Shown here: positions 2,667 to 21,487 of the stretch, piece after piece | Position numbering within the stretch: position 1 is the stretch's first letter | Layout of the letters: each line of letters begins with the position of its first letter | Program-made: the position numbers and the translations under genes | Notes under the pieces: generated by a model | Told to the model about the DNA's origin: nothing | What the model saw: only the letters and a program-made list of their open reading frames with translations | The model's database searches: none | Source: an uncultured bacterium | GTDB lineage: Bacteria > Bacteroidota > Bacteroidia > Cytophagales > Cyclobacteriaceae | Direction: 5' to 3' | Assembly (NCBI GenBank): GCA_965372055.1 | Contig: CBDVAV010000001.1 | Location: forward strand, 1 to 32,550 | Length of the DNA: 32,550 nucleotides

Positions 2667-2771
2667 TATATCATATATGTTTATGATGGCAATATATAGA
2701 AGGTGATGCAATTAAATACTAGAAGTATAGTTAAGAAGTGTTAACAATAGTTAATAACAGTTAAACTGGAT

Positions 2772-2807
2772 TGTCTGAAACTGAATTAGAGGATTTGTAC
2801 AAGTAGG
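2772..2807 (+). pseudogene. Displaced copy of the last 11 codons plus stop of the creatininase-family gene
   Basis: tgtctgaaactgaattagaggatttgtacaagtagg matches 1168-1203 (tgtccgaaactgagttggaggatttgtacgagtagg). It encodes LSETELEDLYK* against LSETELEDLYE*. Confidence 0.75.
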
Positions 2808-2886
2808 AAGGGTATAGGTTTTAATACAATGTTTATAAGGATTTATACTTAGGAAATAAATCTTCACTAATATAGCAGCACACCAC

Positions 2887-2929
2887 AAGTCATTCCTGCC
2901 CCGTAATAAATACGGGGCAGGAATGACTT
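2887..2929. repeat. Perfect 19-bp-stem hairpin, an extended member of the gtcattcctgc...gcaggaatgac palindromic repeat family
   Basis: aagtcattcctgccccgta - ataaa - tacggggcaggaatgactt. The arms are exact reverse complements. No flanking T-run on either strand. Confidence 0.9.
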
Positions 2930-3037
2930 CAGGAGAAGCTGTGGAGTTTCTTAAACATTCCTTCATTATACTACTCATTTCTCCATATTTTACTTTGGAT
3001 CTCAGGTCAACTGATAACAAATGCAACCCATGTACTT

Positions 3038-5431
3038 CTAGCGACTCAGCCACACTTTCATCTCCTCGCTGGCCTCCAATTTTTCTATCTCTGCCCGGGC
3101 CTTTTCTACTTGTTCCCGACCTTGCTGAATGATCTGTTGAAATCTGGGGTCATCCCACAGGCTTTCCAAAGGTGGATCATACAAGGCGAAATCGTGCAGC
3201 CCATCACCAAAGCCAAAATTTCCATAATGTTCCAGCCATTTCAAAGCCTCATCCTTGTCACCTAGTTGGGCATATACTTTGGCCAGTTCGTAGCCAATTC
3301 CTTTTGCCCACTGTCTTTTCCTGGCCACTACTTCCAGCAGGAAGTCCCTGATCTCGATCAAGTTTTGATGGGCCTCTTCCTCTTTTCCATTTTGTTTTAA
3401 TACATAACTGTACATGTGTTTATCGTTATACCCTTGAATTCTAATTACATCAGGTGAGCTGTCGTACAATTGTCTAAAATACTTTTCCGATTCATGGTAG
3501 TTGCCATTCATCATATTAATGATGGCCAGATGATACAGTACCTGGCCTTCAGGATTGATAGCTTTCAATTTTTCAGCAATGGGCAGGTTCTGTTTAAATT
3601 TTCCCTGGCAACGGTTAGTGTGAGCTAATCCTCCATAAGCTAGCACATGATCAGGTTGAATCTTTATCACTTCATTAAAATAATGCTCCGCTTTTTCGTA
3701 GTCTCCAACACTTAAGTAAAGCCGTGCGAATTGCATATAAAGTTCTGTTAACTCAGATCCTTTGATCAATGGCGAGGCTCTTACCAGCAATCTGAAGCGA
3801 ACTGAAAAATTATTTTCTAGGAAGTGAATATCGGCCAGTTGTAACATGGCCTCAGTATAGTTAGGGTTGATTTCCAGCGCCTGATCTAGGTCTTCCAGGG
3901 CTTGGGTTTTGGAGTTGGCAATCCAGTAGTAGTACTGACCTCGGAGGGTATAGGCCTCAGCAAGATTAGGATCTATTTCCAGTGCCCGGTTGCAAAGCAT
4001 CAACATGGAATCCAGTGGTTGCTCATCCAGGTATTCCCTAAAAAAATTTCTATCATAATAAACTTCGGCCAAACCGGCATAGGCCAGCGCAAAATTGGGA
4101 TCAGCTTCCAGGGCACGACGATACAGGCTTACTGCATTTTCGTAATCCTGGTTTTCGGTCTTGTTGTGGTATCGCTTGGCATATTGCTTTCCCCTTATAT
4201 AATATTCGTATGCTTCAGTGCTTTCCGTTGCCAAGGTTGTTAATCCTGATACTTCTTCTGGGGATATCTTTAATTTCAGTTGACTCACAATCTCTTCAGC
4301 TATCTTTCTTTGAATATCAAAAATACCCCGCGTGGTGTATTCTGAAGTGAAGTTATCTGCCCAAATATGCCTGTCATCATCTGTACTTATTAGCTGTGCG
4401 GTAATCATTATCTGGTCTTCTGATTTACGTACACTTCCTACTAATAAGTAACTTACTTTCAACTCTGTACCTATTTCATTAGCTGGTTTTTTCGTGTCCC
4501 GGTATTGTTCCACGGAGGTTCTTGAAATTACCCTTAGTTCTCCCATCTTCTGTAAGTTTGTAAGGATGTCTTCCATTACTCCATCAGCGAAATATTGTTG
4601 GTCTCCTTGCGGGCTCATGTCCGCAAAAGGAATTACTGCAATTGATTTATCAATTATCTTTACTGTTTCACTATCCTTTTGGTTATTATAAAAGAAATAA
4701 GCTAAAGCAAGGATTAGAATTACACCTATGGAAGCTAAAAGGATTTTGCTCTTGTTTTTTGGTTTTGATTCTATTGAAGGAGAAGCGATTGTAGATGTTG
4801 ATTGGACTCCTTCTTTTTCAATCTTGAAAGAATCTCCAATTTTCAGTCCTGATACTATCTCTTGTATAGCATTTGCTACTTTGTTGATTTGATTGCGATA
4901 ATTAGTCCTATTCAGATTATCTTCTTTGTTGTCCTCCGGTTTGAGTGGTCTGTTTACCCCTGGCTCTTGATATACAAAATCAATTGATCTTAAAAAGCCA
5001 ACCTCATCTTCTACTAACTGTCTATCTGCATCACTAATATCATGAATCCTTATAGGTAAAACCCTACTTGCAGTATTGCCATTTGGAAGTTCTACTTTCA
5101 AACCATGATCGTCAGCTTCCGCCATTTTATTGAATGCCAAAAATTCATTAGTCCAGGCGAAGCTATTGGGGTCACAGTAGGTTTTAGATATGATGGGGAT
5201 AAAGATTAAACACTTTAATTTCTTAGCTAAGGAATCATCTACATCATGAGTTTCCAGTAAACCATCGTATGGGTTTTCATCAAAATAGATGGAGATGTAT
5301 TCTTTGAAAGTAGCTTCAATCTCACTCTTTAATGTATTGATAAACTCTGTAACCCATCCATCCAGTTTGTTATCCTTCTGGCGATAACTGATGAAGATGT
5401 CATATTCGTAGCCTGGGATAATTGAAGGCAT
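3038..5431 (-). CDS. TIR domain - single TM - TolB-N-like module - TPR repeat protein (paralog 1)
   Basis: 797-aa ORF. The N-terminus YDIFISYRQKDN...LIFIPIISKTYCDPNSFAWTNEFLAF is TIR-like. One hydrophobic helix ILLASIGVILILALAYFFY spans aa 230-248 (nt 4688-4744). KSIAVIPFADMSPQGDQQYFADGVMEDILTNL follows, then ~400 aa of TPR-like repeats. Confidence 0.85.
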   Translation of the reverse strand: MPSIIPGYEYDIFISYRQKDNKLDGWVTEFINTLKSEIEATFKEYISIYFDENPYDGLLETHDVDDSLAKKLKCLIFIPIISKTYCDPNSFAWTNEFLAFNKMAEADDHGLKVELPNGNTASRVLPIRIHDISDADRQLVEDEVGFLRSIDFVYQEPGVNRPLKPEDNKEDNLNRTNYRNQINKVANAIQEIVSGLKIGDSFKIEKEGVQSTSTIASPSIESKPKNKSKILLASIGVILILALAYFFYNNQKDSETVKIIDKSIAVIPFADMSPQGDQQYFADGVMEDILTNLQKMGELRVISRTSVEQYRDTKKPANEIGTELKVSYLLVGSVRKSEDQIMITAQLISTDDDRHIWADNFTSEYTTRGIFDIQRKIAEEIVSQLKLKISPEEVSGLTTLATESTEAYEYYIRGKQYAKRYHNKTENQDYENAVSLYRRALEADPNFALAYAGLAEVYYDRNFFREYLDEQPLDSMLMLCNRALEIDPNLAEAYTLRGQYYYWIANSKTQALEDLDQALEINPNYTEAMLQLADIHFLENNFSVRFRLLVRASPLIKGSELTELYMQFARLYLSVGDYEKAEHYFNEVIKIQPDHVLAYGGLAHTNRCQGKFKQNLPIAEKLKAINPEGQVLYHLAIINMMNGNYHESEKYFRQLYDSSPDVIRIQGYNDKHMYSYVLKQNGKEEEAHQNLIEIRDFLLEVVARKRQWAKGIGYELAKVYAQLGDKDEALKWLEHYGNFGFGDGLHDFALYDPPLESLWDDPRFQQIIQQGREQVEKARAEIEKLEASEEMKVWLSR

Positions 5432-5566
5432 AGGGTTCTAATTGCTCTAATTAAGGAGTGAAATTACGATTTTTCTACTGATTTTTATAATCAATGATAT
5501 ATCAGGTATCAACATTTTCTTTACCTTGTCTATTGATTAACTTCATCTTGAATTAACACTCGCATC

Positions 5567-6889
5567 ATGGAGAATAAAACAAATAATATCACGTTGAATC
5601 AATTGCCAAATGGAAACAGGAGAGATTTTGTAAAAAAGAGTGGCCTGGCTGCTGCATCTTTAATTGTTGCCCCTTTTTTGACAAATGCTAAACAACAGCA
5701 CCCTGTACTATGGAAGCAGTTTCCCGAAATAAACGATGATGATTACCTGTGGAAATGGGTACAGAATTCATACACGGTTTCGTCAACGGTATCAAATTTT
5801 AACAATGGATCTGTGAGCCCACAGCCCAAAGTGGTACAGGAAGTGTTTGAATTTTATAACCGGTTGTTCAATGAAACACCCTCACGCTACATGTGGAGCA
5901 GCCAAGATAAGGTAGAGTCCGTGAGAGAGAAACTGGCGGAGATTGGCGGCTGCGAGGCAGACGAGTTGGCAATTAACAGAAACACAACAGAGGCCATCAA
6001 TACTATAATTTGGGGATTGAACCTGAACCAGGGAGATGAAGTTGTACTCTCGGAACAAGATTATTCCACGGTAATGAAAACCTGGGAGCAGTAGGAAAAA
6101 AGGCATGGCATTGTCTTAAAATATATCTCCTTTGACCTTCCGGTGGAAGATGAAACCCTGATTGTGAATACTTATGTCGCTGCAGTAACTTCAAAGACCA
6201 AGGTAGTGACCATCACCCATGTGAACAACCTCAACGGTAATGTTATGCCAGTGAAAGCCATCGCTGATGCGGTAAAAAAGAAAAACCCCAAAGTACAGGT
6301 GCTGGTGGATGGTGCCCATGCATTCGCCCACATCGATTTTAATATCTCCGACCTCAATTGCGAATTTTATGGGGCCAGTTTGCACAAATGGTTGTGTGCC
6401 CCATTCGGGACGGGATTATTATATATTAAGAGAAGTGTGATAAAAGATATCTGGCCTTTGTTTCCTTATATGGATCCCCAATCAGGCGATATCAGGAAGT
6501 TTGAAACTTTAGGCACACGCATGTTACCGGCAGAACTTTCCATTGCCAGGGCCTTAGATTTCCAGGAAACCATCCAGATAAAGCGCAAAGAGAAACGATT
6601 GCGCTACTTAAAAGATTATTGGATCCAAAGAGTGGCCGAGATACCCAATGTGGTAGTAAAAACTTCCATGAAACCGGAATTTTCCTGTGCTTTGGGATCT
6701 TTTTCCCTCAAAAATATGGATCATGGTGAATTAAGTATCCGACTTTTAAAAGAGTATCATATTCACACTACCTACAAAGCAGACAAGCACAAGAAGTTTG
6801 AAGGAATGAGGATCACCCCTCATGTTTATACCAGGATCTCTGAATTGGATAGATTGGTGAAGGGCATAAAGGAGTTGGCTAAAGTCTGA
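5567..6889 (+). pseudogene. Class-V (isopenicillin-N-epimerase / cysteine-desulfurase-like) PLP aminotransferase with a Tat signal, interrupted by one in-frame TAG at 6092-6094
   Basis: ORFs 5567..6094 and 6143..6889 are in the same frame. Read-through gives ..TWEQ*EKRHGIVLKYISFDLPVEDETL.. The N-terminus is NRRDFVKKSGLAAASLIVAPF, and an ASLHKW PLP-lysine context is present. Confidence 0.8.
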
Positions 6890-6904
6890 ATTTTTAAAGG
6901 ACTT

Positions 6905-6960
6905 CTGGTAATGTTGGTAAGGTCAAAACTTTGGGAACGCGTATGTTTCCGGAGGTACTG
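6905..6960 (+). pseudogene. Short diverged fragment homologous to an internal part of the aminotransferase
   Basis: Translates to SGNVGKVKTLGTRMFPEVL, against SGDIRKFETLGTRMLPAEL encoded at 6484-6540. Confidence 0.6.
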
Positions 6961-7316
6961 TGCATGTAAGGATGAACAAGCTGGAAGTTTTTGGAATAGT
7001 AAAAGGTACAACCCTGGACCTGGACCCCACGAACCCTGGCTATGATATCACTGCTTTTCTGGGAATCTACCTGAAGAAAAGCTCTTTGTATGACCCTGTA
7101 CTGGAACAGCTTGAAAAAATACCTGAAATCACTAACATCCATTATACTACAGGTAACTACAGTATGTTTGTCAAGCTTTATTGCAGGGATACCCAGCACC
7201 TGAAAGAAGTGCTGCATGAATAAGATTCAAAAAGTGAGGGAAATATCCAGGACTGAGATTATATATCGCTTGAAGAAAGCCTAAATAGGCATATTCATTT
7301 GACGATTGATGGTTGA
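6960..7316 (+). pseudogene. Lrp/AsnC-family regulator lacking the N-terminal HTH and carrying frameshifts near the 3' end
   Basis: The ligand-binding half is recognisable: GYDITAFLGIYLKK..IHYTTGNYSMFVKLYCRDTQHLKEVLHE. The tail NKIQKVREISRTE / ISLEESLNRHIHLTIDG* is only readable after frame changes. The intact tail copy at 13757-13866 serves as reference. Confidence 0.7.
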
Positions 7317-7317
7317 T

Positions 7318-7340
7318 AATTAGTAATTAGTAATTAGTAA
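7318..7340. repeat. Heptanucleotide microsatellite (aattagt) x3 plus a partial unit
   Basis: Direct reading gives aattagt aattagt aattagt aa. Confidence 0.9.
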
Positions 7341-7440: not shown

Positions 7441-10026
7441 TTACAAATCCTCAGGCTCAGGAAAGTTATAGGTGGCAACCAGTGCCATAACTTCTGCTTT
7501 CTTTTTTTTCTGTTTGGTAACTAGTTCCTTGAAACGGGGGATTTCTCTAATATTATCGTAGAAGGATTCTGAAAAAGGATCTAAATATCCATTGTCTATT
7601 GCTTTTCCCATCCAGGATAATGCTTCTTCTTGTTGATCAAATAAAGCATAATATAAAGCCAACTGGGCCATTATGTTGTTATCTTCAATTAAAATTGGGT
7701 TATTGTCATATCTTTCAAAAAAATTGTCAATTCGATCCTCGCAAATTGTTTGAGATTCCTGTGTTTTCCCTGTTTTTAAATAACTGTCTGCTACAAAATT
7801 GTAGGTTCCGTGCCAATGATCGGGAGTGTCCATCAAATATCTTATTGAATCTTTATTCAATTCTTCGTAATAGTCCGTAACATCCTGATATCTCCCCATC
7901 ATCCATAGACTAGTTATTTTTCTTAGATGCAATGAGGAACTATCCCTATTTAATTCAAATAGGTTTTCAGATATTTCAAGATATTTCTCAATATTCATCA
8001 ACTTCCGATATACCCTATTAATGGTGCTTAGATTCCCAGACGTTTTACCGAATTCAAGATCTTTTTCTAGATAGATCTGCGCAGTTTCATAATTACCTAA
8101 ATCCACATGCATCTGCCCAATAATATGAATTGCATGGACTCTGTGTAACGAAAGCTGTTTTTTTATTGCTTCCATGCTGCCTTTAAAATCTCCAACTGTT
8201 AAAGACCAGCTTTGTAAGTTGTGCAGAGCAGCCAGATAGTTGGGATTTATTGATAAGGTTTTTTCATAATACTTTAAAGCCTCCTTAATTCTTCCTTCAA
8301 TTTGACTAGTAACCGCTAGAGCTTTATAGCACTCTGCACACTGATTATCTAGTTCTAATCCCAAATTAGCATATGCTTTTGCTGAGTCGATCCAGTTATG
8401 AGGATAATTATATTGAAACCATCTTTGCATGAAAGCGTTTGCCAGCCCACCATAAGCAGCTGCATATTTTGGATCTTTTTGTACGGCAAGATTTAACTGT
8501 TCGATGCCAAGTTCATTAGACGTCAGGTTATATTGTCGATATAGCTGTCTGCCTCTTTGAAAATGCTCATAGGCTTCTATGTTTTCTGTTTGAGCCTTAG
8601 TGATGAGGGCCACCTGCTGTGGTACTATCTTCAACTTCAATTCTCCTACAATATTTTCAGCAATTTTTCTTTGGATTTCAAATAGACTTTTTGCCGCATA
8701 ATCAGAAGTAAAATTATCTGCCCAAATGTGGCTGTCATCTCTGGTATTAATCAACTGGGCTGTAATCATAATTTGATTGGCAGCTTTTCGTACACTTCCT
8801 TCCAACAAGTAACTGACATTTAGTTCATCACCAATTACAGGGGCAGATTTGTCGGTATTTCTATATTGTTCGACCGACGTTCTGGAAATTACTCTCAATT
8901 CGCCCATTCTTTGCAACTGTGTAAGTATATCCTCCATTACCCCATCAGCAAAGTATTGCTGGTCTTTGTCATCGCTCAAATTGGTAAATGGAATGACAGC
9001 TATTGATTTGTCAATTTCTTCAGATACTACTTGTTCAGTACTGCTTTGAGGATAGATCATGAACAAAGCCACTACTGTAACTACAAGGAGTAAAATAAAG
9101 GTATTACTGGTTAGTGGTTTTTTTTGGGCATCAGTAAAGGGATTATCCCTTGATGCTGCTGAACCTGTTTTAATAAACCCCTGTGGACTTCTCTCAAACA
9201 ACCATGCCATGAGGATTGAAATGGGAAAAAGGATTATCAAAATAAATGGAACTATCTGCAACATGTTTTGGGGCAAGCCAATCACCCCGGCACCTTTCCA
9301 AATAGCTATTGAAATCAATAGATAAACTAAACTAACCCTTAATACATTCCTGCGCTTCAATTCTGAAGTTACTTGTGTTTTCTTTGGTGTTGGTGTTTCT
9401 TTTTCTCCAGGATCAGATTCTTCCCATGACTCTGCTGTTTTAATCCCTGATATTATCTCCTGTATGGCATTGGCAACTTTGTTAATTTGGTTACGATAAT
9501 TAGTCTTATTTAGATTATCCTCTTTGCTGTCCTCTGGTTTTAAAGGCCTGTTTACTCCTGCCTCTTGGTACACAAAATCAATTGATCTCAAAAACCCTAT
9601 TTCATCCTCAACTAGTTTTTTATCTGCATCATCTATATCATGTATCCTGATTGGTAGTACCCTGTTTGCAGTATTGCCATTGGGTAGGTTTACTTTTAAG
9701 CCATGTTCATCATTAGCTGCCAATTTATTGAACGCCAGAAACTCATTGGTCCAGGCGAAACTGTTTGGATCGCAATAGGTTTTGGAAATGATGGGAATGA
9801 AGATCAAGCACTTTAGTTTTTTGGCCAAAGAATCATCAACATCATGGGTTTCTCCTAATCCATCAAAAGGGTTTTCATCGAAGTAAATTGAGATGTCTTC
9901 TTTGAAGGTAGCTTTAATCTCCCGGTTCAGGCTTTCCACAAACTCAGTTACCCAGCCATCTTGGTTATCATTCTGTCGATAACTGATGAAAATATCATAT
10001 TCGTAGCTTGGGATGATTGAGGGCAT
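7441..10026 (-). CDS. TIR domain - 3 TM - TolB-N-like module - TPR repeat protein (paralog 2)
   Basis: 861-aa ORF. The first ~200 aa are nearly identical to paralog 1. Three hydrophobic segments lie at about aa 228-249, 257-277 and 309-326. KSIAVIPFTNLSDDKDQQYFADGVMEDILTQL follows, then a divergent TPR-like C-terminus. Confidence 0.85.
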   Translation of the reverse strand: MPSIIPSYEYDIFISYRQNDNQDGWVTEFVESLNREIKATFKEDISIYFDENPFDGLGETHDVDDSLAKKLKCLIFIPIISKTYCDPNSFAWTNEFLAFNKLAANDEHGLKVNLPNGNTANRVLPIRIHDIDDADKKLVEDEIGFLRSIDFVYQEAGVNRPLKPEDSKEDNLNKTNYRNQINKVANAIQEIISGIKTAESWEESDPGEKETPTPKKTQVTSELKRRNVLRVSLVYLLISIAIWKGAGVIGLPQNMLQIVPFILIILFPISILMAWLFERSPQGFIKTGSAASRDNPFTDAQKKPLTSNTFILLLVVTVVALFMIYPQSSTEQVVSEEIDKSIAVIPFTNLSDDKDQQYFADGVMEDILTQLQRMGELRVISRTSVEQYRNTDKSAPVIGDELNVSYLLEGSVRKAANQIMITAQLINTRDDSHIWADNFTSDYAAKSLFEIQRKIAENIVGELKLKIVPQQVALITKAQTENIEAYEHFQRGRQLYRQYNLTSNELGIEQLNLAVQKDPKYAAAYGGLANAFMQRWFQYNYPHNWIDSAKAYANLGLELDNQCAECYKALAVTSQIEGRIKEALKYYEKTLSINPNYLAALHNLQSWSLTVGDFKGSMEAIKKQLSLHRVHAIHIIGQMHVDLGNYETAQIYLEKDLEFGKTSGNLSTINRVYRKLMNIEKYLEISENLFELNRDSSSLHLRKITSLWMMGRYQDVTDYYEELNKDSIRYLMDTPDHWHGTYNFVADSYLKTGKTQESQTICEDRIDNFFERYDNNPILIEDNNIMAQLALYYALFDQQEEALSWMGKAIDNGYLDPFSESFYDNIREIPRFKELVTKQKKKKAEVMALVATYNFPEPEDL

Positions 10027-10123
10027 TATGGATTTGGTTTAAGCCTTGAATTTAGTGATTTCTAAGCAATGATGCACTAATAGTGAAATGTGCCTTGAAA
10101 GTTAATAGAGGTCTATTTCAAAA

Positions 10124-10212
10124 TTACATTACAATACAGAAAGTGAATTACAATTCCATTGGGCACCTAATCGTGGGTAATTTCTCTAGTGTTTTAGCCT
10201 CTTTGGTGATGG
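10124..10212 (+). repeat. Intergenic element R, copy 1
   Basis: ttacattacaatacagaaagtgaattaca..gcacctaatcgtgggtaatttctctagtgttttagcc. The conserved blocks are shared with R2-R4. Confidence 0.85.
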
Positions 10213-10288
10213 TTACCCCATTGCATATGGTTTTAATACGTTGTAATTTTCCACACATACTTGGACTGAATTCCTACATTTTGTTGAA

Positions 10289-10858
10289 ATGAGCCATTTC
10301 GAATTTGTATCCGTTGCACTATCTATAGTCATAGGCCTGGCCTTAGCACTCTTGCTCACATCTAGCCTGGCCCTTTTCAAAGCTAGGAGAAGTGTTCGAC
10401 TCCATTGGATACCCTTTCTTTGGGCTTCTTATATCTTTGTTTCTCAAATCCAAATTTGGTGGGCAATATATGGGCTAAGCATACTTGACACCATATCTGG
10501 TTACACCTTTATGCTATTATTACTAATGGCCATCTTGCTCTTCATAGCTGGAGGGCTAGTTCTGCCGAACAATTCACAAATGACAGTCAGTTTACTTGAA
10601 TACTTTCAAAATGACGGGCGATATGGCGTACTTGCATATGCTACTTTCTGGCTAATTGCTTTCATTGGAAATCTCAGTGTTTTCAGTTTGCCTTTTTGGG
10701 ATCCTGCTAACATAACCTTATTTATTTTGATGACACTTGCGCTATGGGCCTTTCGAACGCACCGTATGCTCGCGATAGCCACAATTCTTTATGGTATAAC
10801 CCTAATTATCAACACCTTGATTGCTCAAGTAGCCCTGGAAAATATTTTGGGATGGTAG
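10289..10858 (+). CDS. Hypothetical polytopic membrane protein
   Basis: 189-aa ORF with about six hydrophobic segments and no recognisable motif. It is the only plus-strand gene in the island. Confidence 0.55.
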   Translation: MSHFEFVSVALSIVIGLALALLLTSSLALFKARRSVRLHWIPFLWASYIFVSQIQIWWAIYGLSILDTISGYTFMLLLLMAILLFIAGGLVLPNNSQMTVSLLEYFQNDGRYGVLAYATFWLIAFIGNLSVFSLPFWDPANITLFILMTLALWAFRTHRMLAIATILYGITLIINTLIAQVALENILGW

Positions 10859-10922
10859 CAGTAGAAAGGCATTTAGGGGTTCAAACCGGTCAACCCTGAT
10901 TCAAGGATCATTTATTAACAAA

Positions 10923-11008
10923 ATACATTCCAATACAGAAAGTGAATTACACTTATGGTCTGCACCTAATCGGTGGTAATTTCTCCAGTGTTTTCGCCCA
11001 TGTGATTG
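10923..11008 (+). repeat. Intergenic element R, copy 2
   Basis: atacattccaatacagaaagtgaattacac..gcacctaatcggtggtaatttctccagtgttttcgcc. Confidence 0.85.
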
Positions 11009-11051
11009 TTATGTGGATTGATGCTTGGATTGAATATGTTTAGAACCAATC

Positions 11052-12845
11052 CTATTGTTTTAGAGAAAACCTAGGCATGGACTTTAATTTATTAGGATCA
11101 ATTCCTGCTTCAATTAATCGTGCTTTAAAATTTGGGGCTGCATCAATATCAAATGGGATATAGTACGAAAACCGAAATCCCATTTTTTCAAAAAAACGTT
11201 TATAGTAATTTTTTTCTGATAACTGATTATCAAATTTAGATATAAGGTTGTTGGCAGTTTCTACTTCCCCTAATTCCCAATATATCCAAACCACTCGAAG
11301 AAATTGCCAACTTTCATAATCAAGATTATCCAGGTCAATTTGTGGATCAAAAACCTGACCTAACAAAGCTTTGCCAAAATTGATTGCTATCACATCACTT
11401 GAGTTTTTAAGGCTATCTGCAATTAACTTACTCTCACCCATCATTAACCTTAACAGGAGCCTAGATGATCGGGCATAATCGTTATTGCTGGTAATGCCAA
11501 GATTTTCTGCTTTATCTAAAACATTCTTGGCCTCTGATAAATTACCTGAATGAATGTAGATATTTGCAAAGTAAAGATGTATAAATGGGTTATACGGATC
11601 ATTAGTAATTTCTTTATTTAAGATACTAAATACTCCCTCTTGACCAATTTTTAAATATATGAAATCATTTACAAATTGAGAGGTTATTAAATAAGATGGC
11701 TTATAGTTAGAAATAAAATCAGACGCTATCTGTGGTATATCAGACCAATCATTCAGATGGATATGTAGAGTAATATTTAAAATTAATTGAATTGCTTCAT
11801 CACGAATGAAACTGATAGCATATCTATAGTTACTTATTTGTAACTCTATTGCATTCTTAATTGAAAGATCTACATCCTCAGGCCCTGGCATGGTATAATA
11901 AACATAATGATTATAAGCATCAGCCTTTAAATAGTATGCAATACCTATTGTTGAATCCAATGCTAATGCCTTATCCAGAAACTCGTTTGCCTTCCATAGG
12001 GTAAATGTTCTTGGATAAATATTATGAAAATCGTTAAACAATTTTTTTCCTCTTAGAAGGTATTGATAAGCTTCAATATTCTTTGTGCCCGCTACAGCAA
12101 GATTTTCTCTTGCACTATCATCTAAAATGATATTTAAGGCTCGAGCAATTTTATTGGCTATTTCTGTCTGGACTTCAAATAATTCATCATACTTACGATT
12201 AAAGGTTTCAGACCAAATGTGTACATCATCATTTGCCCTTATTAATTGTGTTGTTATTCTCAAATTGTCATCAATTTTTCTTACCGATCCTTCAAGAACG
12301 TAATTTACATTTAAAGTATCGGCCAGTTTTTTAATTGTCAGCCCTTTACCTTTAAATGCAAATGATGAGCTCTTCCCTCTTAACTCTAGTTCTTCAACCT
12401 GGAATAAACTGTTAAGGATCTCCTCGCTCAAGCCATCCGAAAACCATTCCTGATCCTTATCTGGAGACATATCATCAAAAGGCATAACAGCAATAGATTT
12501 TTCCGATGCAATAACATTTTGATTAGCAATTTCAACCTCAACATCTTCAGATTGAATTAGGACATTAACAACAAAGACAGAAGCTAACAAAAGAATAATG
12601 GCATGCAATAAAAGCTCTCGTTGCTGTATGTTCCGTGATTCTGATTTTCCATGAAACCATGCATAAATCAATACAGCAGGCAAGCCGAAAATGGCAATTA
12701 TTATAAATATGTCAAAAATCTTAGCATTCCAGCCATATTTTTCAACAAAAAAATTGAGGGCCTCAATTAATACCCAACCACCACCCAAGTAGATAACCAG
12801 TGTTTGTTGTATTTTACGTTCTTTTAATTGATGAACAAAGGGCAT
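11052..12845 (-). CDS. 3 TM - TolB-N-like module - TPR-like repeat protein without a TIR domain (paralog 3)
   Basis: 597-aa ORF. The N-terminal 3-TM module ends in YAWFHGKSE (paralog 2 has MAWLFERSP). KSIAVMPFDDMSPDKDQEWFSDGLSEEILNSL follows, then a helical-repeat C-terminus. Confidence 0.8.
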   Translation of the reverse strand: MPFVHQLKERKIQQTLVIYLGGGWVLIEALNFFVEKYGWNAKIFDIFIIIAIFGLPAVLIYAWFHGKSESRNIQQRELLLHAIILLLASVFVVNVLIQSEDVEVEIANQNVIASEKSIAVMPFDDMSPDKDQEWFSDGLSEEILNSLFQVEELELRGKSSSFAFKGKGLTIKKLADTLNVNYVLEGSVRKIDDNLRITTQLIRANDDVHIWSETFNRKYDELFEVQTEIANKIARALNIILDDSARENLAVAGTKNIEAYQYLLRGKKLFNDFHNIYPRTFTLWKANEFLDKALALDSTIGIAYYLKADAYNHYVYYTMPGPEDVDLSIKNAIELQISNYRYAISFIRDEAIQLILNITLHIHLNDWSDIPQIASDFISNYKPSYLITSQFVNDFIYLKIGQEGVFSILNKEITNDPYNPFIHLYFANIYIHSGNLSEAKNVLDKAENLGITSNNDYARSSRLLLRLMMGESKLIADSLKNSSDVIAINFGKALLGQVFDPQIDLDNLDYESWQFLRVVWIYWELGEVETANNLISKFDNQLSEKNYYKRFFEKMGFRFSYYIPFDIDAAPNFKARLIEAGIDPNKLKSMPRFSLKQ

Positions 12846-12879
12846 TAGTGGATTTAGTTTACCAACATTAAAAATAGTA
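12846..12879 (-). promoter_or_regulatory. Shared 34-nt leader box (P-box) abutting the start codon of 11052..12845
   Basis: tagtggatttagtttaccaacattaaaaatagta matches 15130-15163 with 2 mismatches. Confidence 0.6.
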
Positions 12880-12926
12880 TAAATCCCTCAAAATTCTTAA
12901 TCCTTATAAATCAGCTCCTTAAATGG

Positions 12927-13010
12927 TTACATTACAATACAGAAAGTGAATTACACGTACGGATGCACCTAATCGAAAGTGATTTCTCCAGTGTATTCGC
13001 CTTTGAGGGT
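12927..13010 (+). repeat. Intergenic element R, copy 3
   Basis: ttacattacaatacagaaagtgaattacacgtacggatgcacctaatcgaaagtgatttctccagtgtattcgcc. Confidence 0.85.
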
Positions 13011-13014
13011 AAGC

Positions 13015-13581
13015 TTACTTTTTTGATTCTAATTCAGATATCCAATTATTTAGTTTGTTAATTTTTATCTGAAGATCCCCCTTGCCCTGGACATGGTGTC
13101 TGGTTAACCAAAAGACCACACCCCCTATACTCAGTACCATGGATGATCCAAAAATTATTAATATTGTCAGCGTTATTTCAGGCATAATAAATTGCATCAT
13201 TCCAATTATAAATACAATGAGTCCTGGTATAAGTGGGAGAAGAGTCCACCAAAAAACACTTCTTTGCAGTTTGTATGTGTTTTGATACCAACCAATCCAG
13301 TACTTAAAATAGTCTAATGTTTCTTCCCTAGATGGCGGTTCATCCTTTCTCATCCTATTTCTAATAATGTATAGAATAATATACAGGGTTCCTGTTGCAA
13401 TAAGTATAGAACCGATTGGTAATAAAATCGGTGCATCCTTGAATAAGTATGCATAAAAGAGGAAAAAAATTATCAAGAATATTCCTGCTGATATTTCACG
13501 AGTGTTACTCTTTGATAAAGACTTTTTGAACTCGTCAGTTTCCTGAAACATCGCTGCTTCATCATTAATTAATCCATCCAT
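13015..13581 (-). CDS. Hypothetical membrane protein (about 4 TM)
   Basis: 188-aa ORF with hydrophobic segments such as GIFLIIFFLFYAYLF and LLPLIPGLIVFIIGMMQFI. No recognisable family. Confidence 0.55.
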   Translation of the reverse strand: MDGLINDEAAMFQETDEFKKSLSKSNTREISAGIFLIIFFLFYAYLFKDAPILLPIGSILIATGTLYIILYIIRNRMRKDEPPSREETLDYFKYWIGWYQNTYKLQRSVFWWTLLPLIPGLIVFIIGMMQFIMPEITLTILIIFGSSMVLSIGGVVFWLTRHHVQGKGDLQIKINKLNNWISELESKK

Positions 13582-13756
13582 ATGGCGAATAATTTGATTC
13601 CAAGTATCTAAAATCTAAATCTTTATTGCTATGACATTTACATAGTTGCTGTTCAATAACTAATAACTTTAAATTTAATAAGTTATGTTGATTTGTAAGG
13701 GTGTTTTGTACAGTATTGTGTGTGTAATAGTTTAATTGACATTAAAAATATGAGGT

Positions 13757-13866
13757 AAGTGCTGCATGAAAAGATCCAAAAAGTGAGTGGGATATCCAGG
13801 ACTGAGACTATTATATCGTTGGAAGAAAGCCTTAATAAGCATATTCATTTGACGATTGATGATTAG
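13757..13866 (+). pseudogene. Isolated 3' fragment of an Lrp/AsnC-family gene (last ~36 codons, frame intact)
   Basis: Encodes VLHEKIQKVSGISRTETIISLEESLNKHIHLTIDD*. It aligns at the nucleotide level with 7207-7316. Confidence 0.75.
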
Positions 13867-13882
13867 TAAGTTCGAAGGTATG

Positions 13883-13996
13883 TTACATTACAATACCCTC
13901 CTTCACTTCGTTTCGGTAGGCAAGCAGAAAGTGATTTACACGTACAGTGTACACCTAACTTGGGGTAATTTCTCCGGAGTTTTCCCTTTGGTGGTA
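13883..13996 (+). repeat. Intergenic element R, copy 4 (carries a 28-nt insertion at 13897-13924)
   Basis: ttacattacaatac[28 nt]cagaaagtgatttacacgtacagtgtacacctaacttggggtaatttctccggagttttccc. Confidence 0.8.
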
Positions 13997-14073: not shown

Positions 14074-15123
14074 TTATTTCCTTTCACCAAAAAAGTCCAT
14101 TACTTCAAGTGTCGAATGAGCTTCTCCTTTTATTTCTTTTCCATTTATTTTTAAATCCAAAACGGTTTTAGAAACAAATCTGGCATACCATGTTCTCCAT
14201 TCGCTGTTCTCTCCAAAAGGAAATGATGCTACAAGCTGTTGGCCCTGAAATCGAATGTAATTATATCCTTTAGCTCCATTGACAATATACATACAATCAC
14301 TACTTATTTTTTTGCCAGTATTCGGATGTGGAACTTTTTCACCCTCTAAACAAACAACTTCATCATTAATAGCATCAATCAGAACTTCATGTCCTTTTGC
14401 CAGATAAACAAATTTAGTTTCTTCTCCACCATTCGCAGGATTAAATCTAACCGATGAAGTAACCGTAGTAATTCCATCTACTTCCGCTGGACTCCATAAC
14501 CAATCACCCAAAATTTCATTCATCGGACAGTTTCCCCAGTTATGATCGTGATATCCACTTCCTGTAATCTCATGAATTTCACCGTTAATAGTTATGGTTC
14601 CTTTTATATTTGCACTTGGAACTGCACATAGCCATGCAAAATACTTTCCATCTGCATCCCAATAACCTGTGCCTGGTTTATAAGTAGGAACCGTTTTATC
14701 AATAATGATATGTAGGCCACAGTTTCCTTCAATCTCATCAGGATCTAAATAGATTTCATATTTGTCCAATCCGTCTAATGATTTGATGAAATGCTTATTA
14801 AATTGGGTATTACAAAAATCTTTTTGGATGAATACCTTTTCATAGTCGATGTCTATTCTCTTTTCAATGATAGAACCTTTTTCATTGGCCATATTAATAT
14901 TAATAAACGAAAACGGATTTCCCTTTTTATCAACTTCATAATAATAATTTACAACAAAAAACAAACCATTGGATAAATGTCCATCGGTATACCACCATTC
15001 AAATTCTCCAGAATTTAAATTAGATGGATCTAAACGTTGGCCATCTTCCCATGGTTCCGATTGATTTTTTGTGAGACCATATGCCTTGTAGTCCGCATCT
15101 GATGTTTTTAATAAACCTTTCAT
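14074..15123 (-). CDS. Hypothetical protein, tentatively of the CrtC/AttH-like (hydroxyneurosporene-synthase superfamily) fold
   Basis: 349-aa ORF. The EWWYTDGHL and GSGYHDHNWG motifs resemble that superfamily from memory only; this is not verified. Confidence 0.45.
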   Translation of the reverse strand: MKGLLKTSDADYKAYGLTKNQSEPWEDGQRLDPSNLNSGEFEWWYTDGHLSNGLFFVVNYYYEVDKKGNPFSFININMANEKGSIIEKRIDIDYEKVFIQKDFCNTQFNKHFIKSLDGLDKYEIYLDPDEIEGNCGLHIIIDKTVPTYKPGTGYWDADGKYFAWLCAVPSANIKGTITINGEIHEITGSGYHDHNWGNCPMNEILGDWLWSPAEVDGITTVTSSVRFNPANGGEETKFVYLAKGHEVLIDAINDEVVCLEGEKVPHPNTGKKISSDCMYIVNGAKGYNYIRFQGQQLVASFPFGENSEWRTWYARFVSKTVLDLKINGKEIKGEAHSTLEVMDFFGERK

Positions 15124-15129
15124 GCCTTT

Positions 15130-15163
15130 TAGTGGGTTTAATTTACCAACATTAAAAATAGTA
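15130..15163 (-). promoter_or_regulatory. P-box copy 2, 6 nt upstream of the start codon of 14074..15123
   Basis: tagtgggtttaatttaccaacattaaaaatagta. Confidence 0.6.
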
Positions 15164-15386
15164 ATGTTTAGGGATTTAGGCTAATCGTTGTGGGCTGAGT
15201 GATCTTCGTGTATAGGAGGTTCAGGTATTTTCAGACTCAATGAGTTAACATGAAGGAAAAAATCTCTAAAAATCGGAATAGAGGACGTCTTTTCTAGTAC
15301 GATTATATTGGAATTAATGATGGAATATGATCATGAGGAAGATAATTACTTGAAACTCATTAAAACCACCTTAAATGAAAAATAAT

Positions 15387-15824: not shown

Positions 15825-16204
15825 ATATTATTCCGATCTAGTAAAATTTTTTAACGAATTTTGGAAGAATGATCAATCATTAAAAAGATCATTTACTTCA
15901 ATCCTTTATATTAAGAATTATATACACTTTTTGATATACTTGTCTCCATTCAATTTGAATTATTTTTACTCTAAGATTAGTTCCTGTTTCTGGTAGTCTA
16001 TTGAAATTTACCAAATCGTTCCAATGCGGATTGACCTATAATAATGGTAGATTTTGATTATGATGTCGTCACTTTGGTATAATGAACTTGATAATCCTCA
16101 CTGAACTATGTATACTCACTCTAACTAGTTAATAATCAATCTATAATAAAACAGCTATAATTATAGGTTGCACATTAGGTGAGAGAATCCATAAAAACTA
16201 CAGC

Positions 16205-16270
16205 ATTCCCGAGTTGGACAGGCTGGTGAAGGGCATAAAGGAGTTGGCCAAAGTCGGAATTTGTAAATAG
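16205..16270 (+). pseudogene. Displaced, diverged copy of the 3' end of the aminotransferase gene
   Basis: Encodes IPELDRLVKGIKELAKVGICK*, against ISELDRLVKGIKELAKV* at 6836-6889. There are 9 mismatches in 58 nt, mostly at third codon positions. Confidence 0.8.
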
Positions 16271-16490: not shown

Positions 16491-16516
16491 TTAGTTACTA
16501 TATGTAAGAATTTACA

Positions 16517-16546
16517 GGCCTTTCCCCAACAGGAAAGGCTTTTTTT
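16517..16546 (+). terminator. Intrinsic terminator 1
   Basis: Stem gcctttcc (16518-16525) / ggaaaggc (16532-16539), 6-nt loop, then a 7-T run at 16540-16546. Confidence 0.8.
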
Positions 16547-16731: not shown

Positions 16732-16759
16732 GGCCTTTCCCAACAGGAAAGGCTTTTTT
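16732..16759 (+). terminator. Intrinsic terminator 2 (near-identical to terminator 1)
   Basis: Stem gcctttcc (16733-16740) / ggaaaggc (16746-16753), 5-nt loop, then a 6-T run at 16754-16759. Confidence 0.8.
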
Positions 16760-16766
16760 GTTATTA

Positions 16767-16837
16767 GACAGCGTGGCCGAGTGGTTAGGTGGAGGTCCGC
16801 AAAACCTTAAACGGCGGTTCGATTCCGCCCGCTGTCT
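16767..16837 (+). tRNA. tRNA-Cys (anticodon GCA at 16799-16801), no encoded CCA, C instead of U at position 33
   Basis: Hand-folded cloverleaf. Acceptor GACAGCG/CGCTGTC with discriminator T. D arm GCC-GAGTGGTTA-GGT. Anticodon stem GAGGT/ACCTT with loop CCGCAAA. Variable loop AAAC. T arm GGCGG-TTCGATT-CCGCC. Confidence 0.8.
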
Positions 16838-16865: not shown

Positions 16866-18974
16866 ATGAAAAGCTTTAGAACTGAAATTGAAAACCCCGA
16901 AGTTGAAAAAGACATTATTGAATTAGAGAAGAAAATTTATCAATTCAATAATAAAAAAATTGATGAAGAAAAATTCAGGGGTCTTAGGTTAGCAAGAGGA
17001 ATTTATGGTCAAAGACAACCTGGAGTGCAAATGATCAGGATCAAACTTCCTTACGGAAAACTGACAGCAGACCAAATGATACGGATTGCTGATGTCTGTG
17101 ATGAATATTCCAATGGAAATCTCCATACTACCACCAGACAAGATATTCAAATACATTATGTAAGTCTTGATAAAACCCCCGAATTATGGGCAAAACTAGA
17201 GAAAGATGATATTAGCTTAAGAGAAGCTTGTGGAAATACTGTCCGTAATATTACAGCTTCGGCCATTGCTGGAATTGACCCTAATGAACTTTTTGATGTT
17301 ACCCCGTATGCACAAGGGTTTTTTGAATATTTCTTAAGAAACCCCATTTGTCAGGATTTGGGAAGAAAATTCAAAATATCATTTTCATCAAGCGATGATG
17401 ATTCTGCCTTCACATTTATGCACGACATCGGGTTTATTCCCCGGTTGAAAAAAGTTGGAACAGAAGAGGTCAGGGGATTTAAGGTGTTGATAGGTGGAGG
17501 TTTGGGGTCAAGGCCTCTTGTGGCAAAGGTTGCCCATCACTTTCTGCCTGATAGTGAAATTTTACCATTTACTGAATCTGTTTTGAAGGTCTTCGATCGT
17601 TATGGTGAACGGAAACGTAGAAACCGTGCCAGGTTAAAATTCTTGCTTGAAGATATTGGGCTTGATGTGTTATTGAGATTGGCAAAAGTAGAAAGGCCCA
17701 GCAGTGCTTCCGAAATCTTTCCATTTGAAACAGTAGAGAAGGTCTTCCAAACACCTGAAAAAAGAAGTATTGGAGAGGTTACAGTGACCAATAAGTCCAA
17801 ATATAAAGATTGGGTTACGACCAATACATTTGAACAGAAGCAAAAGGGGTTTATGGGTATTAAAATACGGTTGTTGATTGGTAATATAGATACCATGCGA
17901 TTTAGAAAACTTGCCAAGCTGGTTAAGCTATATGCTGGAAATGATCTGCGGGTCACCATCAACCAAGGGTTGTTTATAAGGTTTGTGCCTAAGAAGTATC
18001 TACCTTATTTCTTTAATCAATTGGATGAATTGGGGCTTGCTGAGCCTGGTTTTGATAGTGTTTCTGACATTACTACCTGCCCGGGCACAGATACTTGCAA
18101 CCTGGGTATCTCAAGTAGCACCGGAATGACCCGCGAATTGGAGCAAATTCTAATGGAGGAATATCCAGAGTTGATCCATAATACTGCCCTAAAGATCAAG
18201 ATCAGCGGTTGTATGAATTCATGTGGACACCATTCAACAGCAAGTATTGGGTTGCATGGAAGCACTCTCCGTGTAAAAAACAAAGTAGTGCCAGCCATGT
18301 TGGTCCATCTTGGTGGTGGCCCATTAGGTGCCGGACAGGGTAGTATGGCTGAAAAATTAACAAAAATACCAAGCAAGAGAATCCCTGATGCTTTAAGGGT
18401 TTTGCTTGATGACTACCAGGAGAATGGCCAAAATGGAGAATATTTCAATGCCTATTATTTGAGACAAGGCAAGCTATATTTTTTAAACTTACTTCAGCCC
18501 TTCGCGGTCACTGGTAATTTAATGCCAACAGATTTTATTGATTGGGGCCACAGCGACAATTTTAAAACTGCGATAGGTATCGGTGAGTGTGCAGGAGTCA
18601 CCATAGATCTGGTAGCAACACTGTTTCTGGAAGTAGAAGAAAAACTTGATAATGCATTATCGTCCCTTCAGGATGAAGCTTATGCAGACTCTATATATTT
18701 TAGTTATGCTGCTTTCATTAGTGCTTCCAAGGCGATGTTGATCAGTGGGGGTATTGAGACCAATACTCATGCCGGAATTATTTCCTTGTTTGATGAAACA
18801 TACGTGGATACCAACATAGTTTACATTGATGGGCAGTTCAGCAGCATGGTATTGAAAATGAAGAATACTGAACCAACTGGAAAGTTTGCCGAAGAATACC
18901 TGGCAGAAGCCATGGGATTTCATCAACAATTACAGAAAGCAAGAGAAAACCAATTGATCAATGAAAAGGGCTGA
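16866..18974 (+). CDS. Assimilatory sulfite reductase hemoprotein, NirA/Sir/CysI family, long (702 aa) form
   Basis: Siroheme-[4Fe-4S] cysteine clusters are present: TCPGTDTCNLG and KISGCMNSCGHH. There are duplicated nitrite/sulfite reductase ferredoxin-like halves and a ~140-aa C-terminal extension. Confidence 0.85.
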   Translation: MKSFRTEIENPEVEKDIIELEKKIYQFNNKKIDEEKFRGLRLARGIYGQRQPGVQMIRIKLPYGKLTADQMIRIADVCDEYSNGNLHTTTRQDIQIHYVSLDKTPELWAKLEKDDISLREACGNTVRNITASAIAGIDPNELFDVTPYAQGFFEYFLRNPICQDLGRKFKISFSSSDDDSAFTFMHDIGFIPRLKKVGTEEVRGFKVLIGGGLGSRPLVAKVAHHFLPDSEILPFTESVLKVFDRYGERKRRNRARLKFLLEDIGLDVLLRLAKVERPSSASEIFPFETVEKVFQTPEKRSIGEVTVTNKSKYKDWVTTNTFEQKQKGFMGIKIRLLIGNIDTMRFRKLAKLVKLYAGNDLRVTINQGLFIRFVPKKYLPYFFNQLDELGLAEPGFDSVSDITTCPGTDTCNLGISSSTGMTRELEQILMEEYPELIHNTALKIKISGCMNSCGHHSTASIGLHGSTLRVKNKVVPAMLVHLGGGPLGAGQGSMAEKLTKIPSKRIPDALRVLLDDYQENGQNGEYFNAYYLRQGKLYFLNLLQPFAVTGNLMPTDFIDWGHSDNFKTAIGIGECAGVTIDLVATLFLEVEEKLDNALSSLQDEAYADSIYFSYAAFISASKAMLISGGIETNTHAGIISLFDETYVDTNIVYIDGQFSSMVLKMKNTEPTGKFAEEYLAEAMGFHQQLQKARENQLINEKG

Positions 18975-21194: not shown

Positions 21195-21487
21195 AAGTCA
21201 TTCCTGCGAAGGCAGGAATCCAGAATATGAACCTAATGTTGGGGTTTTAAGGAGTGTACAGCAAAATATGGTGTAAAAAGCCTTGTTTGTTATGAGACAT
21301 TTGATGATCCAATGTCAGCAATTATTCGGGAATAAAGAATGCAGAAATGGTAAAGAGTACGGTAGATCAAGCTTATTGAAAAGTGAATATGAGTTGGGAA
21401 GACTTGTCAAAGCAGTGCTATCACTCAAGCAATTTTCTTCCACTCACCAAATGGTTAACTGGATTCCTGCCTTCGCAGGAATGACTT
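21195..21487 (+). mobile_element. 293-bp MITE-like unit: perfect 27-bp terminal inverted repeats enclosing a decayed GIY-YIG nuclease 3' half
   Basis: 21195-21221 (aagtcattcctgcgaaggcaggaatcc) is the exact reverse complement of 21461-21487. The interior reads GFKECTAKYGVKSLVCYETFDDPMSAIIRE*RMQKW*RVR*IKLIEK.., then NMSWEDL after a frameshift. Confidence 0.75.

Follow-up and report, generated by a model that had tools for sequence, protein, structure and literature searches.

To our knowledge, no system for stockpiling single genes as cassettes other than the integron is well understood. Integron detection depends on the fold of the attC site and on the IntI integrase; a CALIN needs no intI integrase. 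Non-coding intergenic repeats of ~100 nt with imperfect dyad symmetry include the enterobacterial ERIC, the pneumococcal BOX and RUP, and the Correia elements of Neisseria; within these families, insertions at fixed internal positions create variants, promoters or terminators are present in some, and Correia elements are further marked by a TA duplication and terminal inverted repeats. As far as we know, they are dispersed genome-wide and never form strictly co-oriented arrays with one copy per gene. REP/RAYT and IS200/IS605-derived elements (PATEs) have neither a target duplication nor terminal inverted repeats, and move by a strand-specific, single-strand mechanism. Among the Bacteroidota, integrons have been reported (PMC8618304), and the rAID-1 arrays of gut Bacteroidales combine repetitive intergenic sequences and skewed GC content with homologs of interbacterial-toxin immunity genes and a conserved XerD-family recombinase gene at one array end (Ross et al., 10.1101/471110).

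Here we describe R, a non-coding repeat of 77 bases that, always in one direction, separates neighbouring unrelated genes along a low-GC part of a chromosome. Our best, tentative reading is that R serves as the boundary or the recombination site in a cassette array that is integron-like without being an integron.

R occupies consecutive intergenic regions of a low-GC island

The window, by which we mean the whole 32.5-kb contig analysed, contains four copies of R, all on the plus strand. R1 (10123..10201) is a full copy of 77-79 nt between divergent genes, and R2 (10922..11000) is a full copy between convergent genes. R3 (12926..13003), also full, lies 82 nt upstream of a 597-aa gene and 11 nt past the stop codon of a 188-aa gene, both on the minus strand; R4 (13882..13989) carries a 29-nt insertion (13896-13924). 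An nhmmer search of the window returned R1 to R4 with E-values of 5.7e-24, 3e-25, 6.4e-24 and 1.8e-21, the next-best match having an E-value of 0.9, and a covariance model run with filters off scored them at 92.7, 91.4, 84.2 and 59 bits, with the next match at E 1.4. A repeat finder grouped the copies as families D5, D6, D8 and D12, and patterns for two blocks of R matched the window four times (block 1; 0.17 expected by chance) and three times (block 2; 0.00 expected). The four co-oriented copies of the preliminary description are real. By both the HMM and the covariance model they are confined to a 4-kb island (10.1-14.0 kb), with none in the other 28 kb; a supposed degenerate half copy at 15178-15214 and a compressed look-alike at 5456-5486 were detected by neither model and are non-significant. 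Across 11-16 kb, GC content is 30-34%; the rest of the window is mostly at 35-42%.

R does not code for protein, as no reading frame survives its 1-nt indels, and it is not CRISPR-like, because the spacings of 799, 2004 and 956 nt between copies contain genes; on both points the preliminary description was right. Its observation that one copy lies in each intergenic region, regardless of gene orientation, holds for four consecutive regions.

Left of R1 is an 861-aa TPR/FlgO-like gene on the minus strand (7441..10026; previously termed TIR paralog 2). The putative cassette ORFs that follow encode a 189-aa membrane protein without a Pfam match (10289..10858, plus strand, as R), a 597-aa protein with TM, FlgO-like and TPR regions (11052..12845, minus strand), a 188-aa membrane protein (13015..13581, minus strand) and a 349-aa protein (14074..15123, minus strand), the last lying between R4 and a separate module, P/X (15131..15352, minus strand). 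P/X is a real conserved element distinct from R, and is not significant as an R copy. It is directly upstream of the 349-aa gene and consists of an R-arm-like segment, ATTAGCC, a promoter-like box (TACTATTTTTAATGTTGG) and, in its X part, a minus-strand hairpin with a T-run after it; it recurs upstream of unrelated genes in contigs L006, L008, L009, L014, L019 and L023 (78-86% identity). The 861-aa gene has its closest homolog in L019 (73% identity), where P lies before the gene and a half R after it. Judging from the sequence, the leader between R3 and the 597-aa gene (12846..12925, minus strand) has the same promoter-like box as P; this leader aligns with long modules of L009, L014, L015 and L016, and together with the N-terminus of the 597-aa ORF it is 75% identical to L009 446-824. 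Directly left of R4 is what remains of an Lrp/AsnC gene's 3' end (13757..13869, plus strand; families D15 and D20), 88% identical to positions 7222-7319; Pfam AsnC_trans_reg matches at 6960-7223. R1 and the 80 nt to its left are 82-84% identical to L005 1581-1743 and L023 4281-4433, and, more generally, likeness between R copies often runs on for 20-400 nt to the left as common leader modules.

R forms co-oriented arrays with nearly one ORF per interval

Searches for R located it in metagenome contigs and in no Rfam family: against Rfam 15, only a tRNA was found at the gathering threshold, and an E-value search returned only unrelated eukaryotic families with scores well below the gathering score. 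R is carried by one GTDB genome and 17 metagenome contigs, the latter chosen for carrying R and all from one narrow lineage; two further R-bearing contigs, L019 and L023, were picked up later via protein homologs. R was absent from the plasmids, phages and viral contigs searched. Half of the contigs found by a single pattern match hold additional R copies, and many R-bearing metagenome contigs terminate within R. Copies on different contigs are 93-97% identical over 72-89 nt, and their flanks are unrelated.

Adjacent copies are co-oriented in all 16 pairs, found on 11 sequences (p ~1.5e-5 under random orientation), with start-to-start spacings of about 150 to 2004 nt. Of the 16 intervals, 14 contain exactly one ORF (70 aa or longer), which lies on the same strand as R in six cases and on the opposite strand in eight; the other two intervals are empty and 79 nt long, as between two copies in L011. 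R is found in divergent, convergent and tandem intergenic regions. Of 26 right ends, 18 face a stop codon, often 0-50 nt away, and eight face a start codon; of 20 left ends, 12 face the start of a gene and eight a stop. Gene content is heterogeneous, with cupin (two), SnoaL/DUF4440 (two), ABM, CMD, GIY-YIG, SBF and cyclase families across contigs, and 10 of 20 cassette genes without a Pfam match.

R has near-invariant arms, a variable centre and little tendency to fold

R has a variable centre of 25 nt, in which the motif CACCTAA is conserved, between two imperfectly inverted and nearly invariant arms, AATACAGAAAGTGAATTAC and GTAATTTCTCCAGTGTT. Alignment columns 8-31 and 55-78 are nearly invariant, and columns 32-54 vary and tolerate 18-nt insertions. 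The insertion noticed earlier in R4 stands, at 29 nt by alignment; it follows TTACATTACAATA, and the identical internal point carries insertions in copies of L016 and L018 (alignments A1 and A2), these inserts being 29 nt or similar. A 19-nt insert at a fixed internal point is found in L016, L003 and L005. Half-R variants recur and are themselves multi-copy. Their breakpoints lie in or close to the central CCTAA motif, but not at a single exact nucleotide, being at positions 33, 43-46, 36 and 50 of the model. The flanks of 22 R copies contain no target-site duplication or terminal inverted repeats, on which grounds we rejected R as a MITE; the inverted arms are internal and imperfect.

A two-helix architecture with a variable tip can be drawn for the plus strand of R, with 92.6% of cells paired, an outer helix of AATAC/GTGTT, all wobble pairs being G:T on this strand, and covariation in the tip only. 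The earlier statement that R has no covarying stem is nearly right, the exception being compensatory changes in the 4-bp mini-hairpin GTAC-N3-GTAC (five AU-to-CG and eight UA-to-UG); the covarying copies fall in subfamilies and therefore reflect few independent events. Paired GC-rich insertions in L016 lengthen the outer helix by 10 bp. RNA folds of both strands have no excess stability over shuffles (z -0.8 to +1.2), and RNAalifold gives no consensus structure (-0.12 kcal/mol). As single-stranded DNA, canonical copies have minimum free energies of -5.5 to -6.5 kcal/mol (z relative to shuffles, -0.7 to +0.4), and the hairpin drawn above is not the minimum free energy structure.

Similarity between near-identical contigs ends at R-family junctions

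L003 and L014 are 98% identical as far as a half R, beyond which they carry different genes. Similarly, L023 3450-4350 and L010 111-1020 share 96% identity, ending exactly at ATTAGCC; left of this junction the contigs differ, one carrying a full R and a further 17 nt, the other a P-type arm. The CMD cassette protein is 86-88% identical to products of genes in TetR-CMD operons that lack R on seven other contigs, with nucleotide similarity limited to the ORF and at most ~50 nt upstream. Here, the CMD gene is an ORF-only unit between R-family modules, suggesting that units may be captured from ordinary chromosomal operons.

The 32.5-kb contig contains no recombinase or integrase genes. Neither the ORFs of the window nor any R-bearing locus yielded a tyrosine recombinase, and intI and attI were likewise not seen. 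Only one of 20 R-bearing sequences, L001, has recombinases near R; these are two tandem large serine recombinases that look like an unrelated mobile element, because their family spans many phyla. We found no identical cassette at two different array positions, and saw no circular junction and no pair of occupied and empty R sites.

Discussion

R arrays resemble integron arrays and CALINs in that co-oriented repeats of ~60-140 nt separate single, mostly small, functionally unrelated ORFs, in being chromosomal and low in GC, and in that metagenome assemblies are broken at the repeats. As in a CALIN, at least two co-oriented sites lie less than 4 kb apart and separate ORFs and, like attC, R has conserved, imperfectly inverted arms and a centre that varies in sequence and length. 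However, the complementary core pair of attC, R'' (RYYYAAC) and R' (GTTRRRY), in which AAC/GTT is conserved, is missing from R (alignments A2 and A3); GTTAAAC (equivalently GTTTAAC) occurs in one left-flank subclass only, without a complementary partner at the other end. R also lacks the stable, imperfect single-strand hairpin of attC, with its R box, L box and variable terminal structure. In contrast to integrons, ORFs in R arrays have no orientation bias (6:8), units carry their own promoter-like leaders, and hybrid half-sites break mid-site rather than at one end; complete integrons further differ in having intI and attI. rAID-1 arrays are from the same phylum, and the repetitive intergenic sequences and skewed GC content of rAID-1 are also seen in the R island, a likeness by description, the rAID-1 motif being published only as a figure. 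In contrast to rAID-1, no XerD-family recombinase was found in the window or at the R loci. Among the Pfam matches of ORFs in R arrays (cupin, SnoaL, ABM, CMD, GIY-YIG and others; half of the ORFs had no match), no immunity-gene content was found. R arrays are most likely built on a site unlike any described one, rAID-1 having been compared by description only.

We propose that R delimits the units of a gene-cassette array on the chromosome of an uncultured Bacteroidota lineage, to which Cytophagales are the closest named relatives. The unit between two co-oriented R copies would be one gene with its own promoter-like leader. R would most likely be a double-stranded site read, via its two inverted arms, by a sequence-specific protein, and gene-sized units may be moved, deleted or replaced through recombination at or next to R-family motifs, with the central TTAGG/ATTAG motif as the candidate crossover point. 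A recombinase would act on R and would presumably be encoded elsewhere in the genome. Among the three roles put forward in the preliminary description, that of a cassette-boundary recombination site is best supported, by the consistent co-orientation, the single-ORF intervals, the unrelated small accessory genes and the divergence at R-family junctions, although no recombinase was found. We are more doubtful of the full version of this model, in which R is the recombination site of a previously undescribed non-integron cassette system of Bacteroidota. In that version, protein would bind the two inverted arms of double-stranded R, crossover would take place at the central TTAGG, and a recombinase with its gene elsewhere would assemble co-oriented arrays of self-promoted, ORF-sized units taken from chromosomal operons.

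The main rival, possible but on balance unlikely, likens R to the ERIC/BOX/RUP/Correia repeats, as a modular intergenic repeat that is selfish or neutral, or takes it for a relic of a non-autonomous single-strand transposon; either way, R would have spread through the intergenic sequence of a permissive low-GC island, together with promoter and terminator modules. Like those repeats, R is short, intergenic and non-coding, with dyad symmetry in its imperfectly inverted arms and internal insertion variants. Its discrete 77-nt unit, with highly similar copies in unrelated flanks, the sub-modules inserted at fixed points, the multi-copy halves, the gene-free pair in L011 and the lack of a linked recombinase all fit such a repeat, with which the shared leaders left of R are also compatible. 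A strand-specific insertion mechanism, such as the single-strand mechanism of REP/RAYT elements and PATEs, would account for the uniform orientation of R, and R shares with these elements the lack of target duplications and terminal inverted repeats; however, it has no paired similar sub-terminal hairpins and no stable fold, and no TnpA, RAYT or TnpB gene is near it. Unlike Correia elements, R has no terminal inverted repeats or TA duplication and, unlike any of the ERIC/BOX/RUP/Correia repeats, it forms strictly co-oriented, one-per-gene arrays. Moreover, four to five consecutive intergenic regions are all occupied while ~20 others in the contig are empty, and neither an occupied-versus-empty site pair nor a match in viral contigs, phages or plasmids was found. 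The variable centre between invariant arms argues for purifying selection on every copy, and not for recent spread.

We consider it improbable that R is a UTR element of co-regulated island genes or acts on them as cis-regulatory DNA, for instance as an operator, as an insulator or as a site for a nucleoid protein. The strongly conserved blocks, the frequent proximity of the right end to stop codons, the tendency of the left end to face gene starts and the promoter-like boxes alongside R are what such an element might show, but the neighbouring genes have no functional relation, contig breaks and junction polymorphisms are located at R, and no terminator signal is tied to it. The shared 5'-UTR or regulator role suggested earlier is poorly supported, because the orientation of R is constant while flanking genes face both ways. 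Least probable, and very unlikely in our view, is that R is a folded nucleic acid, whether as a small RNA, as an RNA motif or as the attC-type single-strand hairpin of a true integron. The extensively paired plus-strand fold, the mini-hairpin changes, the lengthened helix of L016 and the CALIN-like geometry favour this reading; against it stand the missing core pair, the window without intI, and the few independent covariation events. The small structured RNA of the preliminary description is not supported, given the lack of an Rfam match, folds no better than shuffles and no RNAalifold consensus.

Even if R is a selfish repeat, it would be a new repeat family whose strict directionality is unusual and needs explanation. 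If, instead, R bounds cassettes, then arrays with the architecture of integrons, a non-folding site and no nearby integrase would escape integron detectors, and cassette-type gene banking would have arisen more than once. The 77-nt R probe would then be a handle on the responsible enzyme and on the accessory gene pool of uncultured Bacteroidota.

R copies delimit single-gene units in a narrow lineage

The window contains four copies of R, a directional repeat of 77-79 nt, all on one strand: R1 (10123-10201, +), R2 (10922-11000, +), R3 (12926-13003, +) and R4 (13882-13989, +). All four were found by a repeat finder (families D5, D6, D8 and D12), by an HMM built from the copies themselves (E 3e-25 to 1.8e-21; next window match E 0.9) and by an unfiltered covariance-model search (92.7, 91.4, 84.2 and 59 bits; next match E 1.4), and the two conserved blocks have 4 and 3 matches in the window against chance expectations of 0.17 and 0.00. 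The four same-orientation copies of the preliminary description are thus borne out; R4 does carry an insertion, of 29 nt rather than the 28 nt given there. Neither the HMM nor the covariance model detected the half copy proposed at 15178-15214 or the look-alike proposed at 5456-5486. R had been described as neither coding nor CRISPR, and we agree on both counts: 1-nt indels among the copies break every reading frame, which excludes a coding remnant, and the distance between copies is gene-sized, which is why we reject a CRISPR array.

Our database scan used a three-block pattern, for which one copy per contig sufficed for retrieval. Among 185,579 species representatives the pattern matched a single genome, L001, a MAG labelled "Bacteroidetes bacterium", and the same kind of scan retrieved 17 short metagenome contigs with R. 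An HMM scan then revealed additional complete or partial copies, a second or a third, on 9 of the 18 contigs, several of the R-bearing contigs terminate within R, and two more arrays (L019 and L023) were reached through protein homologs. Contigs L020 and L021 encode homologs of the 861-aa TPR/FlgO-like window protein at 53% identity and have no R, so the repeat is specific to a narrow lineage. CMD homologs at 86-88% identity (L024-L033) are also without R, and there was no match in collections of plasmids, phages and viral contigs. A full-text literature search for the conserved blocks returned nothing relevant.

A script run over the R-bearing sequences found adjacent R copies to be co-oriented in all 16 pairs; 14 of the 16 intervals contain a single ORF of 70 aa or more, and the other two are 79-nt gaps. 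The ORFs between copies lie on the same strand as R in 6 cases and on the opposite strand in 8; next to the right end of R there are 18 stop codons and 8 start codons, and next to its left end 12 start codons and 8 stop codons. Given co-oriented repeats, mixed ORF strands and mixed start and stop facing, R is a boundary mark independent of gene orientation, in agreement with the earlier observation that it separates genes whichever way they point. R is a real, directional repeat that delimits single-gene units. The genes so delimited are mutually unrelated, and include an ABM monooxygenase, an SBF transporter, an adenylate cyclase, two cupins, a CMD protein, two SnoaL/DUF4440 proteins and a GIY-YIG protein; 10 of 20 have no Pfam match, and the window's own membrane and TPR proteins come on top of these.

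R is part of larger modules

Between unrelated contexts, R copies keep 93-97% identity over 72-89 nt. Similarity between contigs never passes the right end of R (..TGTTTTCGCC), and to the left it often runs on for 20-400 nt, in a few discrete leader classes. R is thus part of larger modules. A separate conserved leader module, P/X (window 15131-15352), has an R-arm-like stretch, an ATTAGCC motif and a promoter-like box directly 5' of the start codon, and recurs before unrelated genes in L001, L008, L009, L014, L019, L023 and the window. Contigs L003 and L014 share 98% identity over the 491 nt that lead up to a half R, after which their genes differ; they also differ by a 19-nt insert within R. 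Similarly, L023 3450-4350 and L010 111-1020 are 96% identical over a stretch that takes in the promoter box, the CMD gene and the R downstream of it, and their similarity stops exactly at ATTAGCC, to the left of which a full R plus 17 nt occurs in L010 and a P-type arm in L023. The L010 CMD protein has homologs 86-88% identical to it on seven contigs, each after a TetR gene and without R; nucleotide similarity to these contigs covers an ORF-sized unit only, the ORF and at most ~50 nt upstream.

In several half-R forms that are themselves multi-copy, the break falls at or beside the central CCTAA/TTAGG (model positions 43-46 and 50), suggesting that crossovers may occur in the centre of R. Other half-R forms break at positions 33 and 36.

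Conserved arms surround a variable centre

An alignment of 22 full copies has almost no variation in columns 8-31 and 55-78; columns 32-54 are variable and accept 18-nt insertions. The arms, AATACAGAAAGTGAATTAC and GTAATTTCTCCAGTGTT, form an imperfect inverted repeat around a central CACCTAA motif. Arms that are invariant around a centre that is free in every copy suggest recognition by a sequence-specific protein rather than a fold.

A hand-drawn fold pairs 92.6% of cells, with covariation only at a 4-bp mini-hairpin, GTAC-N3-GTAC (5 AU-to-CG, 8 UA-to-UG and 2 CG-to-UG changes). Since these changes define subfamilies, they represent few independent events. The earlier statement that R has no covarying stem therefore holds almost entirely, with the mini-hairpin as its sole exception. 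Folded as RNA on either strand, single copies are no more stable than dinucleotide shuffles (z -0.8 to +1.2), and canonical copies folded as ssDNA reach -5.5 to -6.5 kcal/mol with z ~0; RNAalifold gave no consensus structure (-0.12 kcal/mol), and R matched no Rfam family, whether at the gathering or at the E-value threshold.

Short GC-rich sub-modules, such as CTTGCCCGCCGAAGGAGGG and the complement-like CCCTCCTTC...GGCAAG, are inserted within some copies (L016 804-938, L003 1230-1300, L005 23-81, window 13896-13924 and L018 1091-1110). They enter R at the same two points across contigs, sometimes in both arms and able to pair; in the L016 variant, complementary insertions on the two sides add a 10-bp stem.

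The island and its surroundings

The window makes up an entire contig of 32,550 nt. Housekeeping genes lie on both sides of the R island (creatininase, sulfite reductase, sirohaem and PAPS reductase genes, isocitrate dehydrogenase and panB). GC content is 30-34% in the island and mostly 35-42% in the rest of the window. The nearest named relatives of a window protein are from Cyclobacteriaceae and Chryseolinea, and an exact-protein look-up for two window cassette proteins found none on record. Membrane and TPR proteins are also among the island genes. Two window genes previously called TIR paralogs (3038-5431 and 7441-10026) have no Pfam TIR match at E <= 0.01; what Pfam does find in them is limited to TPR repeats and a weakly matching FlgO/TolB-N-like region. 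Their family is very large in Cytophagales-like Bacteroidota (7220 matches at E <= 1e-20).

The 3' ends of two genes are duplicated as direct repeats that bracket the island or fall within it: a class-V aminotransferase (6832-6898 and 16201-16267, 84% identity) and an Lrp/AsnC gene (7222-7319 and 13771-13869, 88%). The aminotransferase is broken into separate ORFs at 5567-6094 and 6143-6889, and the HTH half of the Lrp gene is missing; together with the duplications, this suggests that the island arose through an old integration or duplication.

A second, unrelated repeat family, a GC-rich palindrome of 20-30 nt (GTCATTCCTGCGAAGGCAGGAATC), looks REP-like; copies in both orientations (1-33, 168-200, 334-366, 21195-21227 and 21459-21487; families D3, D7, D10 and I1-I3) occupy housekeeping intergenic regions, and one pair is 100% identical over 33 nt at a distance of 21 kb. 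Two near-identical terminator-like hairpins, GGCCTTTCCC(C)AACAGGAAAGGC followed by a T-run (16516-16541 and 16732-16754, ~215 nt apart), lie just upstream of a tRNA gene (16767-16837; Rfam, gathering threshold). A direct repeat of 148-180 nt (24070-24217 and 24785-24932, 87-92% identity) lies between YjeF-type and NUDIX genes, and the sulfite/nitrite reductase ORF (16866-18974) has a weak C-terminal HEPN-domain match (E 1.4e-4, residues 591-644), an unusual combination.

Possible roles of R

Independence from gene orientation argues against a UTR or terminator and for a role at the DNA level. A regulatory element, including the shared 5'-UTR or regulator site proposed earlier, is accordingly improbable. 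We consider a structured nucleic acid, such as the small RNA also proposed, more doubtful still, given the absence of an Rfam family or consensus structure, folds like those of shuffles, and covariation confined to the mini-hairpin.

The main rival, a modular selfish repeat, is somewhat unlikely. ERIC/BOX/Correia-type repeats share with R a modular design that bears insertions, but lack its strict one-per-gene, co-oriented arrays. The flanks of R have neither terminal repeats nor target duplications.

Integron CALINs share both geometry and gene content with R arrays. R nonetheless fails the attC criteria of core sequence and folding, which rules out a canonical attC, and R arrays lack an ORF orientation bias. 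A tRNA-derived att site was also rejected; R resembles the D-arm of the tRNA at 16767 over only 9 nt. No recombinase is encoded in the window. In L001, two tandem large serine recombinase genes (2492-4805; 234 aa and 553 aa) lie 260 nt from R, but homologs of these recombinases occur across many phyla and L022 (40 kb), the one contig nearly identical to L001, breaks exactly at the recombinase gene, which gives no evidence of a link to R. The rAID-1 arrays of Bacteroidales, defined by a XerD-like recombinase and immunity genes, have integron-reminiscent repetitive sequences between genes and skewed GC (10.1101/471110). R arrays resemble them in phylum, skewed GC and repetitive intergenic sequences, but we found no XerD-like recombinase, and no immunity genes among the Pfam-annotated array genes.

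Although the window encodes no recombinase, the co-oriented single-gene arrays and the junctions make the cassette-boundary recombination site of the preliminary description the most probable role, and we tentatively propose that R marks the boundaries of a non-integron cassette array or serves as its recombination site.
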